A stretch of 64,000 nucleotides of DNA from Bosea sp. (in: a-proteobacteria) (lineage in GTDB: Bacteria; Pseudomonadota; Alphaproteobacteria; Rhizobiales; Beijerinckiaceae): the NCBI RefSeq assembly GCF_036675845.1, contig NZ_JAKFED010000183.1, forward strand, positions 15,716-79,715, given 5' to 3'. Shown in pieces: positions 38,034 through 41,860 of the stretch. The notes below the pieces were generated by a model. That model was given only the letters and a program-made list of their open reading frames with translations, was not told where the DNA came from and ran no database searches. The number at the start of each line of letters is the position of its first letter. The stretch's first letter is position 1. Position numbers and translations under genes: made by a program.

Positions 38034-38462
38034 ATGTCCCCAATCCGCCTGTTCACCGATTTCGACGGCCGCATCGGCCTGCGCCAGTTCTGGTTCGGCA
38101 GCGTCGTGATCGCGCTCTGCCTGCTGGCGATCCAGTGGCTTTCGCCACGCCTTACGGACAGCCACACGGGTGCCGTCATCGTCGCCTTCGCCAACGCCTT
38201 CGCCCTGTTTCCCTGGGCGGCGCTGGCGGCAAAGCGCGCCACCGACCGGGGCAGTTCGTCGCTCTTCGGCATCCTGCTGGTCTGCGCCATCGTCCTGCCG
38301 ACGCAGTTGCGCCCCTTCCTCGGCTACGGATGGCGGCCGTCGCTGGAGGCGATCTCGACGATGGCGTGGCTGGTCGCGCTGGTCGATCTCGGCATGATGC
38401 CGGCGGCCGAACCCGATGCAGCGCTTGCAGAGCACAAGGCGGCTGATAAACCGGCGCAATGA
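38034..38462 (+). CDS. DUF805 family membrane protein
   Basis: FDGRIGLRQFW and AKRATDRG motifs; GA overlap with the dapE start. Confidence 0.8.
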   Translation: MSPIRLFTDFDGRIGLRQFWFGSVVIALCLLAIQWLSPRLTDSHTGAVIVAFANAFALFPWAALAAKRATDRGSSSLFGILLVCAIVLPTQLRPFLGYGWRPSLEAISTMAWLVALVDLGMMPAAEPDAALAEHKAADKPAQ

Positions 38463-39661
38463 GCCAGAACACGCCAGCCGCCCTCGCCTTCGACCCCGCC
38501 GATCCCGTCGCCCTGACCCAGGCCCTGGTGCGCTGCCCCTCGGTGACGCCGGCCGAGGCCGGGACGCTCGCCCTGCTCGATGCGGCGCTGAGCGCCGCGG
38601 GCTTTTCCGTCGAGCGCCCGGTGTTCTCCGAGCCGGGCATGCCGGAAATCGAGAACCTCTACGCCCGCATCGGCAGCGACGGCCCCGTTCTTGTGATCGC
38701 CGGGCACATCGACGTCGTGCCGCCGGGCGACCTCGCCGCCTGGACGCATGATCCTTTCGCAGGCGAGATCGTCGACGGCGTGCTCCATGGCCGCGGCGCC
38801 TGCGACATGAAGGGCGGGCTCGCCGCGATGATCGCCGCCGTGCTGCGCTTCCGGCGCGAGAACCCGCAGGCGCCGGGCTCGATCGCCTTCCTGATCACCG
38901 GCGACGAGGAAGGCCCCGCCGTCAACGGCACGGTCAAGCTGCTGGAATGGGCTCGGGCGCGCGGCGAGCGCTTCGACCATTGCCTGCTCGGCGAGCCGAC
39001 CAATCCGGCAACGATGAGCGACATGATCAAGATCGGCCGGCGCGGCTCGCTCACCGGCAAGCTGACGGTCACCGGCATCCAGGGCCATGTCGGCTATCCG
39101 CATCTGGCGCAGAATCCGATCCGCGGCATGGTCCGGCTGCTGGCCGGGCTCGAGACCGCACCGCTCGACGCCGGCACCGAGCATTTCGACCCGAGCAATC
39201 TCGAGGTGACGACGCTCGATGTCGGCAATCCGGCGACGAACGTCATCCCGGCGCAGGCCAGAGCGGTGTTCAACATCCGCTTCAACGACCTCTGGACACC
39301 GGAGACGCTGGCCGCCGAGATCGAACGGCGCCTGCGCGAGGCGGCCGGCAATGCCGTGCGCTACGAGATCGCCTTCAACCCGACCAATGCGGTCGCCTTC
39401 CTGACGCAGCCCGGCCCCTTCGTCGCGATGGTCGCCGACGCCGTCGAAGCCGAGACCGGCAAGCGCCCGGCGCTCTCGACCACCGGCGGCACCTCCGATG
39501 CGCGCTTCATCAAGAACCATTGCCCGGTCGTCGAATACGGCGTCGTCGGCCAGACCATGCACCAGGTCGACGAGCGCGTCGCCGTCGCCGATCTCATCGC
39601 GCTGGAGCGGATCACCCACCGGCTCCTGACCACCTATTTTGCCGCAACCCAGCCGGCTTGA
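38459..39661 (+). CDS. dapE: Succinyl-diaminopimelate desuccinylase
   Basis: AGHIDVVPPG, GRGACDMKG, TGDEEG, GEPT, GRRGS and STTGGTSDARFI. Confidence 0.96.
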   Translation: MSQNTPAALAFDPADPVALTQALVRCPSVTPAEAGTLALLDAALSAAGFSVERPVFSEPGMPEIENLYARIGSDGPVLVIAGHIDVVPPGDLAAWTHDPFAGEIVDGVLHGRGACDMKGGLAAMIAAVLRFRRENPQAPGSIAFLITGDEEGPAVNGTVKLLEWARARGERFDHCLLGEPTNPATMSDMIKIGRRGSLTGKLTVTGIQGHVGYPHLAQNPIRGMVRLLAGLETAPLDAGTEHFDPSNLEVTTLDVGNPATNVIPAQARAVFNIRFNDLWTPETLAAEIERRLREAAGNAVRYEIAFNPTNAVAFLTQPGPFVAMVADAVEAETGKRPALSTTGGTSDARFIKNHCPVVEYGVVGQTMHQVDERVAVADLIALERITHRLLTTYFAATQPA

Positions 39662-39728
39662 CGGAACCTTTCCCGCTCTCCATGCTTTAGACGAAAGTCT
39701 AATGCCATTGAGACCGGAGGGTCTGGCC

Positions 39729-40316
39729 ATGAGGCTTGCTGCCGACGATGTGACGCGTTCCCTGCGGGCCTCCTGGCGCCTGCTCTCGGCAGATGCCAAG
39801 GCCCTGCCCGATCTCGATCTCTCCCGCGATGGCTTCTGGCGCTCCTATCTGGCCCTGGTCCTGACCGTGCCGGCGATCATCCCCGTGCTGGCGGCCGAGC
39901 GCGTGCTCGCCGGGCTGCCGAACACGACCGGGCTGTTCGACGCCCCCGTCCTGCTCGCCTCGGTGATCGTCGCCGAATTGCTGGCGGTGATCACGGTGCC
40001 GGTGCTGCTCGTCATGCTGGCGCCGGGGCTGCTGCACTCCCCGCGCTTCACCGGCTTCATCATCGCCTGGAACTGGTCGAGCATTCTCTCCGCCAGCCTG
40101 ATGGCGGTGCCGGCGGCGGTCTTCGCGCTGGGCTGGTCGAACGCCGGAATCGCGAGCGTCCAGGCCCTCGCCTTCGCGGCGATCGTCCTGCGCCTGCGCT
40201 ATTGCGTGGCCCGCGCCGCCTTCGGCGCACAAAGCGGCATCGCCGGCGCGGTCGCCTGCGCCAGCCTGCTCGCCGACTACGCGATCATCCGGACCTTCGG
40301 GCTCGCCGGGTTCTAG
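39729..40316 (+). CDS. Hypothetical membrane protein
   Basis: About 195 aa multi-TM protein, DLSRDGFWRSYLA..FIIAWNWS; GGAGG RBS before ATG 39729. Confidence 0.75.
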   Translation: MRLAADDVTRSLRASWRLLSADAKALPDLDLSRDGFWRSYLALVLTVPAIIPVLAAERVLAGLPNTTGLFDAPVLLASVIVAELLAVITVPVLLVMLAPGLLHSPRFTGFIIAWNWSSILSASLMAVPAAVFALGWSNAGIASVQALAFAAIVLRLRYCVARAAFGAQSGIAGAVACASLLADYAIIRTFGLAGF

Positions 40317-41023
40317 ATTTTCGTCACCGGGATCAGGCCGACGCCGTAATACAGGGCCTTGCCCCGGGTCGTGACCGAATCCGAGGAAGGGGCGATCTCG
40401 AAACCCGCCTTGACCAGCTCGTTGACGGCTTTCGCCTTGATCGACGCGCTGGCCGCCACGTCGAAGCTGATCTTCAATTCGACCGTGGCTTCGAGAACCT
40501 TCAAGACCTGATGCGCATTGCTCTGACCGATATTGGTCATGACGATCTCACGGCAAACCGGCCTGAGGAGCGCGCGGATCTCCGCCAGCTCGTCCTGCGC
40601 ATAGGTGTAGATCTTGGCGTCGGCGACGGTGACCACGGCGCTCCTGGCCGCACGGGCCGTCGCCTGGAGATTGAACAGGCTCTTGAGAGCGGGCGCCTCG
40701 ATGTTGAAGCTTCCTCCAAGCTGACTGGCGACGTCCCGACTTTCGGTGTCGCTCAAGGTCGGCTTGAAATTATAGAGATCGACCGAGTACCGCGACGTGC
40801 AAAGGGACGTCAGCTGCACCGAGCGCGGGTTCTTGTCGCTCGGGTCGTAATTCTCCCTGGCGACCAGGGCGCCCGGTCCATGCAGGGTGCTGGGCGGGAC
40901 GTTTCTCGAAAAGCCGTATCTGGCGATGATGCTTTCGATCTGGCGGTCTTCGTCCTGGCAGGCGGCCAGGGGAAACGTGGCCAGAAGGCATAGTGCGAGC
41001 CGTAGTCCCCGTTTCCGCTTCAT
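40313..41023 (-). CDS. Orphan lipoprotein with gasdermin-like sequence pattern (see findings)
   Basis: MKRKRGLRLALCLLATFP-LAA-C lipobox. The mature chain begins CQDEDRQIESIIARYGFSRNVPPSTLHGPGALV and ends KALYYGVGLIPVTKI. The ORF itself is well supported; the fold call is inference. Confidence 0.7.
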   Translation of the reverse strand: MKRKRGLRLALCLLATFPLAACQDEDRQIESIIARYGFSRNVPPSTLHGPGALVARENYDPSDKNPRSVQLTSLCTSRYSVDLYNFKPTLSDTESRDVASQLGGSFNIEAPALKSLFNLQATARAARSAVVTVADAKIYTYAQDELAEIRALLRPVCREIVMTNIGQSNAHQVLKVLEATVELKISFDVAASASIKAKAVNELVKAGFEIAPSSDSVTTRGKALYYGVGLIPVTKI

Positions 41024-41064
41024 GGCCAACTCCGACGGGACCCTCAAGGGTTATTCTACTTAAA

Positions 41065-41078
41065 GTTGCATATGCAAC
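41065..41078. promoter_or_regulatory. Perfect 14-bp palindrome (putative operator)
   Basis: GTTGCATATGCAAC in an AT-rich spacer, 41 nt upstream of ATG 41023, with an extra TTGCAAC half-site at 41085. Confidence 0.5.
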
Positions 41079-41122
41079 CCTGCCTTGCAACCTTAGGGGT
41101 CTCCCGTCAGCCCATCGGCAAA

Positions 41123-41860
41123 TCAGTAGTCGACGCCGGCGAGATAGAGCCCGCAGGGCGGCGCCAGCGCGGCACATTGCGAGCGGTCGCGCGCCGCCAG
41201 CACCTTGCCGACCTTGTTCTCCGGCCAGCGCCCCATGCCGACCATCTTCAGGCAGCCGACGATGGAGCGGACCTGATGGTGCAGGAAGGACCGGGCATGG
41301 GCATAGACCACGACCTCCGGTCCCTCGCGCCGGCAGTCGAGCCGGTCGAGCGTGCGCAGCGGGCTGTTGGCCTGGCATTCGGCGGCGCGGAAGGTGGTGA
41401 AGTCGTGATGGCCGATGAGCGCCTTGGCGGCGCGGTCCATCGCCTCGTGGTCGAGCCTGACCGGCACATGCCAGACGCGGTCGGCCTCGAGGGCGGGTTG
41501 CGCCCGGCGGTCGAGGATGCGGTAGATATAGTAGCGGCGCAGCGCCGAGATGCGGGCGTCGAACGAGTCGGGCACCGCCTCGGCGCTCAGCACCGCCACC
41601 GGCAGGCGCTTCAGCCTGGCATTGCTGGCATCGCGCACGACATCGGTGCGCCATTCGCGCTCGAGATCGACATGAGCGACCTGATGGGTGGCATGCACGC
41701 CGGCATCGGTGCGCCCGGCGCAATGCAGCCGCACGGCATGGCCGCAGAACGCCTCGACCGCCTCCTCGACGCTCTGCTGCACGGAGGGGCCGTTGAGCTG
41801 GCGCTGCCAGCCCGAGAACGGCGTGCCGTCATATTCGATGACCAGCTTGTAGCGCGGCAT
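41123..41860 (-). CDS. truA: tRNA pseudouridine(38-40) synthase
   Basis: IEYDGTPFSGWQ, AGRTDAGVHA, FDARISA, SFLHHQVR and APPCGLYL. Confidence 0.97.
   Translation of the reverse strand: MPRYKLVIEYDGTPFSGWQRQLNGPSVQQSVEEAVEAFCGHAVRLHCAGRTDAGVHATHQVAHVDLEREWRTDVVRDASNARLKRLPVAVLSAEAVPDSFDARISALRRYYIYRILDRRAQPALEADRVWHVPVRLDHEAMDRAAKALIGHHDFTTFRAAECQANSPLRTLDRLDCRREGPEVVVYAHARSFLHHQVRSIVGCLKMVGMGRWPENKVGKVLAARDRSQCAALAPPCGLYLAGVDY

Follow-up and report, generated by a model that had tools for sequence, protein, structure and literature searches.

Can a gasdermin be exported from the bacterial cytoplasm, and can it dispense with both the C-terminal tail that inhibits it and the protease that releases it? 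This question is raised by a gene of Bosea sp. (in: a-proteobacteria) lying in the window, the stretch of 64,000 nucleotides of contig NZ_JAKFED010000183.1 (assembly GCF_036675845.1) analysed here, which on the minus strand, from 41023 to 40313 with the stop codon included, encodes a protein of 236 amino acids hereafter called P0001. Bacterial gasdermins (bGSDMs) require an associated protease and are typically encoded in anti-phage defence islands, as stated in reviews and in a structural paper of 2026, and their C-terminal inhibitory peptide is 17–67 amino acids long (PMC13475620); the preprint that founded the field mentions neither signal peptide, nor lipoprotein, nor periplasm (bioRxiv 10.1101/2021.06.07.447441). 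P0001 lacks three features that define the bGSDM systems, namely the cytoplasmic location, the inhibitory tail and the partner protease.

We consider it very likely that P0001 is an exported gasdermin homologue and, with less assurance, we regard it as probably belonging to a divergent branch of the bacterial gasdermin superfamily that is located outside the cytoplasm, and as acting as a latent membrane-perforating effector of the cell envelope. That P0001 forms pores is a more tentative claim, argued by analogy with known gasdermins, and we put it somewhat below an even chance. If this reading is correct, gasdermins also work outside the cytoplasmic membrane, N-terminal lipidation is an ancestral requirement satisfied by two different lipidation routes, and a non-proteolytic way of keeping a gasdermin silent must exist. 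A branch of exported, cysteine-anchored homologues, often devoid of tail and protease, would change the current picture of bGSDMs as protease-dependent effectors of defence islands.

Predicted fold and shared ancestry with gasdermins

The original prediction, made by eye from the letters of the sequence, had proposed a gasdermin fold for the mature chain. An exhaustive phmmer search among 1.8 billion representatives retrieved 102 relatives of P0001, from which an alignment of 91 sequences was built, and all the family counts given below refer to this alignment. When AlphaFold was provided with these 91 sequences, the predicted local distance difference test score (pLDDT) of the P0001 model was 90.7 and the predicted template modelling score was 0.80; with a 15-sequence alignment, pLDDT was 72. 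In the Foldseek comparison of the better model with the PDB, the best seven matches are all bacterial gasdermins, among them Runella 7n52, Vitiosangium 7n51, the 8sl0 oligomer and the 9a84 pore, with E-values from 4e-6 to 3e-3, probabilities of 0.87–1.0 and template modelling (TM) scores of 0.32–0.49, and they are followed by GSDMB and by CDC/MACPF proteins at E > 0.01. The model with pLDDT 72 gives the same ranking and, in addition, a match to Bradyrhizobium 7n50, and neither CsgG, HfaB nor any other lipoprotein fold is found among the competing PDB matches. In the secondary structure of the model a twisted sheet carries two beta-alpha-beta motifs, formed by strands 104–108/126–140 and 171–187/216–232, and both these motifs and the amphipathic long strands are retained. 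On the basis of the model, the mature chain of P0001 is predicted to adopt the fold of the gasdermin pore-forming domain; the gasdermin-like core spans approximately residues 30–236 (40316–40936, minus strand) according to AlphaFold, Foldseek and hhalign, and no C-terminal inhibitory peptide follows it.

The relationship is also detected by curated hidden Markov models (HMMs). The PADLOC bGSDM model matches 23 of the 91 family members, with a best E-value of 2.4e-8, and NCBIfam NF051890 (prok_gasdermin) matches 21, with a best E-value of 6.3e-6. These matches fall on the long members of the family; for example, P0092 aligns with positions 3–202 of the 257 of the PADLOC profile at an E-value of 1.4e-5. 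No bGSDM match was obtained for ten long relatives with an N-terminal anchor other than a lipobox, and Pfam PF26164 (bGSDM) is not among the 25 families most often matched by the 91 members, so that matches to it at E ≤ 1 are limited to a few members at most. In the scans of P0001 itself against Pfam, NCBIfam, PADLOC and the PDB sequences, the only direct matches, to ARM_LIN and to a picornavirus VP3, were dismissed as due to chance.

Three profiles were then compared with 177,635 PDB sequences and each time gasdermins, with E-values of 0.02–0.08, were the top or the only matches: the top gasdermin was GSDMD for the profile of the whole family (A2; E 0.019), the Vitiosangium bGSDM for that of the long subfamily (A3; E 0.06) and GSDMA3 for that of the short subfamily to which the gene of the window belongs (A4; E 0.06). 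With the PADLOC bGSDM model no canonical gasdermin was found in 401 alphaproteobacterial genomes; with NF051890 a single one was detected among 401 genomes of the phylum. The latter, in genome G670, was used as a yardstick: it bears the UniRef name Ramlibacter ginsenosidimutans ‘Gasdermin bGSDM’, its N-terminus reads M-G-I-C, and the large open reading frame (ORF) adjoining it is a candidate caspase/CHAT-like protease, as read from its CHGG motif alone.

For the profile-profile comparison, 41 canonical bGSDMs including the crystallised Vitiosangium protein were assembled in a single profile, which replaced a single bGSDM sequence against which hhalign had assigned the short subfamily a probability of 0.4%. 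The exported family aligned with this profile over 203 columns with a probability of 96.3% (E 1.5e-9), the short subfamily of the window aligned in the same register with a probability of 56.8% (E 1.1e-4), and short and long exported subfamilies aligned with each other with a probability of 100% (E 6e-40). The collinear order of motifs that had been suggested by eye is reproduced by the computed alignments to the Vitiosangium bGSDM, to GSDMA3, to GSDMD and to the 41-sequence profile. Judged from these profiles, gasdermin homology is established for the family, and for P0001 it follows from a strong transitive link together with a modest direct signal.

It could be argued that the resemblance is a modelling artefact, or a case of convergence, and that P0001 is an unrelated beta-rich lipoprotein; the identity to bGSDMs of only 12–19%, the TM-scores below 0.5 and the missing HMM match of P0001 itself would agree with such an explanation. 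We consider it very improbable, as it is contradicted by evidence drawn from sequence alone, in which two curated HMM libraries, three profile searches of the PDB and collinear full-length profile alignments, with the lipidated cysteine in register, all agree.

Export signal, extra cysteines and missing tail

P0001 begins with a type II signal peptide, as it had been proposed: the rule-based reading of residues 1–22 (40958–41023, minus strand) recognises the three parts of a lipoprotein signal, which are the n-region MKRKR, a hydrophobic core and the lipobox L-A-A-C, ending with Cys22 (codon 40958–40960, minus strand). The feature is general in the family, since 88 of the 91 members have an N-terminal hydrophobic segment for export or anchoring, which in 62 of these includes a lipobox, and the three members devoid of it look truncated at the N-terminus. 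Pfam LPAM_1 gives weak matches in five relatives (best E 0.0068).

In the profile-profile alignment, the lipobox Cys22 is in register with Cys4 of canonical bGSDMs, in agreement with the position that the original prediction had assigned to it, and the HMMER alignment to the Vitiosangium protein places the lipobox cysteine of the family on the same Cys4. The equivalent N-terminal cysteine is palmitoylated in bGSDM (bioRxiv 10.1101/2021.06.07.447441) and its lipid is described as promoting membrane insertion. Because of this correspondence, the predicted mature lipoprotein would begin exactly at the lipid-bearing residue of the cytosolic proteins, and the difference between the two N-termini appears to amount to a signal peptide placed ahead of the cysteine. 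The similarities to bGSDMs (Runella zeae 7N52, Bradyrhizobium tropiciagri 7N50, Vitiosangium 7N51/8SL0/9A84; PF26164, PDLC02986, NF051890) include the fold and the ancestry of the whole pore-forming domain, the preformed beta-alpha-beta motifs, the lipid-bearing cysteine at an identical N-terminal position and a size corresponding to the cleaved, active form. There are also differences: bGSDMs are cytosolic and carry an S-palmitoyl thioester, whereas P0001 is predicted to be exported by Sec and to receive diacylglyceryl and N-acyl groups from the lipoprotein pathway; furthermore, it has neither inhibitory peptide nor adjacent protease, possesses two extra invariant cysteines, is encoded outside any defence island and falls under the threshold of all three curated bGSDM models.

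The two internal cysteines noticed at the outset do exist and turned out to be specific to the exported clade. Cys75 (codon 40799–40801, minus strand) is found in 91 of 91 members and Cys157 (codon 40553–40555, minus strand), its candidate disulfide partner, in 90; in canonical bGSDMs no cysteine occupies the first column and Asp or Asn is found at the second. The pattern fits a putative Cys75-Cys157 disulfide acquired together with export.

As for the tail, in the hhalign register residues 18–233 of P0001 correspond to residues 1–222 of a canonical bGSDM of 262 amino acids, after which P0001 has 3 residues left, compared with approximately 40 in canonical proteins. Its end lies 3–5 residues past the last conserved strand, its C-terminal extension is scored as 0 amino acids and, in the alignment, the chain stops where proteolytically activated bGSDMs stop; the claim that an inhibitory tail is missing is thus upheld. 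Extensions of 0–9 amino acids characterise 49 of the 91 members, including all the close relatives of P0001, and the other 42 have 13–79. The long exported relatives share with P0001 the export signals, the PPSTL-GPG motif and the cysteine pair, but they continue beyond its end with 13–79 additional C-terminal residues or with a whole enzyme domain. When the tree is rooted on canonical bGSDMs the long forms branch first, with a support of 44% for the basal node, and P0001 is placed in a mostly short clade of 63 members; this branching order suggests, within the limits of that weak basal support, that the tail was lost in the lineage of P0001.

No activating protease was found adjacent to the gene, either in the window, as the original prediction had stated, or in eight orthologous loci. 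The only peptidase-like neighbour is DapE, an M20 ‘peptidase’, which was rejected as activating protease because it is a housekeeping enzyme present everywhere, including the sites devoid of the gasdermin-like gene. The only Peptidase_C70 protein of the genome, encoded at L018:910-1953 (plus strand; G000 contig 29), shows no linkage with the window, and a signal peptide is not evident in it. One might suppose that P0001 is activated by a periplasmic protease encoded elsewhere, which either frees it from its anchor or cuts an inhibitory element other than a tail, such as the acidic helix that follows Cys22 at the N-terminus. The long relatives with their extensions, some of them with a C70 protease in cis, and the presence of that unlinked C70 protein would be in line with this possibility; nonetheless, P0001 has no C-terminal extension at all, the C70 protein shows no signal peptide and no syntenic protease accompanies the orthologues, and we regard the explanation as improbable.

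Precedents for a tail-less gasdermin come from outside Bacteria: such proteins are described only in eukaryotes, namely in Trichoplax and fungi (PMC12547243, PMC13475620). TrichoGSDM of Trichoplax and RCD-1 of Neurospora, as presented there, consist, like P0001, of a lone gasdermin N-domain without inhibitory tail or domain, and their activation is therefore independent of cleavage; unlike P0001 they are eukaryotic and cytosolic and are not lipoproteins. In TrichoGSDM, according to the same publications, disulfides keep the protein inactive until they are reduced (Li et al., Science 2024); these disulfides are intermolecular and located in the beta1-beta2 loop, whereas the cysteines of P0001 lie elsewhere and their pairing is only predicted.

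Distribution, selection and proposed activity

The close clade of P0001 comprises 15 homologues with 45–82% identity, retrieved by a word-indexed search, in which 38 columns are invariant, including Cys22, Cys75 and Cys157. Its hosts are Bosea sp. WAO, Bosea rubneri, Bosea sp. Leaf344, several metagenome-assembled genomes of Bosea/Bradyrhizobiaceae and one uncultured alphaproteobacterium, and in every case the gene is located between truA and dapE. Of 25 genomes sampled within the genus three carry it, and a member of the family occurs in two of 400 other alphaproteobacterial genomes. At the empty sites of five congeners, the membrane-protein gene that follows dapE and truA are separated by 28–72 bp, compared with 819 bp in the window (40304–41122), so that the gene, as it had been suspected, is inserted in the sense of a single-gene indel, recognised by DNA search. 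Between loci the identity of the gene is 44–82% and that of the flanking genes is 75–97%; the GC content is 0.61–0.63 in the gene and 0.68–0.72 in the flanks. Because of these data on identity, presence and absence, empty sites and GC content, the gene is best described as an accessory locus of a single gene, fast-evolving and often lost, set among core genes. Tandem paralogues were found in none of the loci examined and no phage homologue was detected by tblastn.

Its absence from most congeners and its GC dip might also be expected of a decaying remnant, that is to say what is left of a long-form gene after truncation and loss of function. However, the ratio of nonsynonymous to synonymous substitution rates (dN/dS) between P0001 and its nearest orthologue is 0.18 at a dS of 0.69, and the gene is under purifying selection. 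This ratio and the 38 invariant columns across 15 homologues are not those of a remnant; moreover, the frame, the ribosome-binding site and the upstream element are intact and kept in orthologues down to 44% identity, and the tail-less form makes up large clades. We therefore give this explanation hardly any credit.

Several relatives are found in a mobile context. One is located on an island that also carries an integrase, AlpA and a restriction-modification system, another lies beside a resolvase and a restriction-modification pair, and others are carried by rhizobial plasmids, three of four of which are conjugative. Relatives are also associated with enzymes: Peptidase_C70 (AvrRpt2-like cysteine protease) is fused C-terminally in P0062, P0096, P0099 and a protein of 479 amino acids of genome G343 (L016:7505-8944, minus strand), and in P0067 a GH25 lysozyme is fused and another GH25 gene adjoins. 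On the conjugative plasmid pSMED03 of Sinorhizobium medicae WSM419 (NC_009622.1; L027:297-2701), a tail-less homologue with a lipobox, WP_011971145.1, annotated as hypothetical, is encoded approximately 670 bp upstream of the exported GH25 lysozyme WP_011971143.1. The patchy, fast-evolving and partly mobile distribution, together with the recurrent GH25 and C70 partners of the relatives, points to a role in lysis, antagonism or defence rather than in housekeeping.

Some side observations concern these partners. In the C70 fusions, the gasdermin-like domain and a protease are contained in one predicted exported polypeptide, and the pSMED03 homologue with its GH25 lysozyme constitutes a culturable model pair; Sinorhizobium medicae WSM419 and the Bosea hosts of the close clade (WAO, B. 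rubneri, Leaf344) are culturable and non-pathogenic. The genome of the window has two GH25 lysozyme genes, arranged in tandem (L029/L030, G000 contig 100, 3063–4693) and located on a contig different from that of the window. Divergently upstream of the island-borne homologue P0016 are two unannotated genes without Pfam family, encoding 425 and 109 amino acids (L008:3593-5201, L009:273-1881), which are conserved on two independent contigs and are possible partners of the P0016 lineage.

Following the established pathways, P0001 would be exported by Sec, lipidated at Cys22 by Lgt, LspA and Lnt, and sorted by Lol, probably to the outer membrane in view of the Gln at position +2, while DsbA would oxidise Cys75 and Cys157 to a disulfide. 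By the known mechanism of gasdermins, the two beta-alpha-beta motifs might then turn into membrane hairpins, and the protein would oligomerise like the bGSDMs in their pores. Since P0001 has no tail to cut, the restraint would have to be non-proteolytic, and the candidates are the Cys75-Cys157 disulfide, the lipid anchor or the location itself, and a tight control of expression through the conserved upstream element; the cysteine pair is the first of them because of the precedent of TrichoGSDM, whose disulfide-locked pores are activated by reduction.

Different considerations weigh against this reading of P0001 as a latent perforating effector. P0001 itself matches no curated gasdermin model of Pfam, NCBIfam or PADLOC, the profile of its subfamily matches canonical bGSDMs with a probability of 57%, and the TM-scores are just under 0.5. 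The sorting to the outer membrane is assumed from the rule of E. coli, which may not transfer. A pore former without a tail should endanger the cell that exports it into its own envelope, and the restraints listed above are candidates only. Finally, the immediate neighbours of the gene in the window include neither an immunity gene nor a regulator or hydrolase, and the surroundings are of housekeeping type (def-fmt-truA, dapE, lptCAB), with a possible co-transcription with truA.

According to the main competing explanation, P0001 is a lipoprotein with a gasdermin fold that has ceased to make pores and whose fold, with its hydrophobic tunnel, would have a function in lipid binding, structure or upkeep of the envelope; the tail would be absent simply because nothing needs to be inhibited. 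Such a protein would be tolerated without tail, protease or immunity gene amid housekeeping genes, the 49 tail-less members out of 91 indicate that the form is stable, and the divergence beyond the reach of curated gasdermin HMMs would find an explanation. On the other hand, P0001 preserves both beta-alpha-beta motifs as well as its long amphipathic strands, the patchy, partly mobile and fast-evolving distribution is that of a gene in conflict more than that of a maintenance gene, and relatives are fused to, or adjoin, lysozymes and proteases. All considered, we judge this explanation to be rather unlikely.

The reading of P0001 as an envelope effector finds a functional analogy in the CDCL toxins of gut bacteria (8G32, 9CCQ), which are described in PMC11952106 as giant-pore formers used for antibacterial antagonism; they belong to a separate superfamily and their fold matches that of P0001 only weakly (E about 1). 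In its boldest form, this reading would make P0001 the first extracytoplasmic and the first cleavage-independent bacterial gasdermin, a constitutively tail-less protein, lipidated by the lipoprotein pathway and restrained either by its anchor or by a periplasmic Cys75-Cys157 disulfide working as a redox switch like that of TrichoGSDM. Its targets would be neighbouring cells, the outer membrane or the periplasmic face of the inner membrane, where it would form giant pores, and in related systems such a protein would constitute with exported lysozymes a holin-independent module of lysis or antagonism. As a whole this is a speculative proposal that we hold as possible and not as probable. Full-text searches of the literature found no publication on exported or lipoprotein gasdermins. 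The gene suggests that gasdermins have a use in the cell envelope that is independent of cleavage and not yet described.

The locus and its neighbours

The assignment of the coding sequence rests on the ORF and its translation, on the homologues, on dN/dS and on the fold, and agrees with the 236-amino-acid ORF with a lipoprotein signal originally reported, for which no strand had been given. On the minus strand, translation would start at an ATG (41023–41021), preceded at 6 nt by a putative ribosome-binding site GGAG (41030–41033, from reading of the sequence), and would stop at 40313–40315.

The gene lies downstream of truA (41123–41860, minus strand), in the same orientation as def-fmt-truA, from which it is separated by a spacer of 99 bp. 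This spacer contains a conserved element (41066–41090, minus strand) with the inverted repeat TTGCA...ATGCAA, including the 12-bp palindrome TTGCATATGCAA. In five orthologous loci the TTG and ATGCAA columns of the element are invariant and the rest of the spacers has diverged. A scan of the region upstream of the gene with the sigma-70 consensus found no promoter, and the repeat could be an operator or an element of a non-sigma-70 promoter. The further neighbours, confirmed by Pfam, are rmuC, def, fmt and truA on one side and dapE, DUF805, a 3'-5' exonuclease, lptC and lptA on the other.

On the dapE side (38459–39661), the gene is tail to tail with a gene for a multi-pass membrane protein of 225 amino acids without Pfam family (39639–40316, plus strand), which overlaps the end of dapE by 23 bp. 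This protein was discarded as a dedicated partner or immunity protein: its gene is present at the empty sites and is missing from three loci that bear the gasdermin-like gene, those of Bosea sp. Leaf344, of the uncultured alphaproteobacterium (L025) and L007. A single CTAG (40313–40316) supplies the stop codons of both convergent genes and leaves no intergenic space for a terminator, and the membrane-protein gene is kept after dapE in most Bosea genomes, with or without the gasdermin-like gene.

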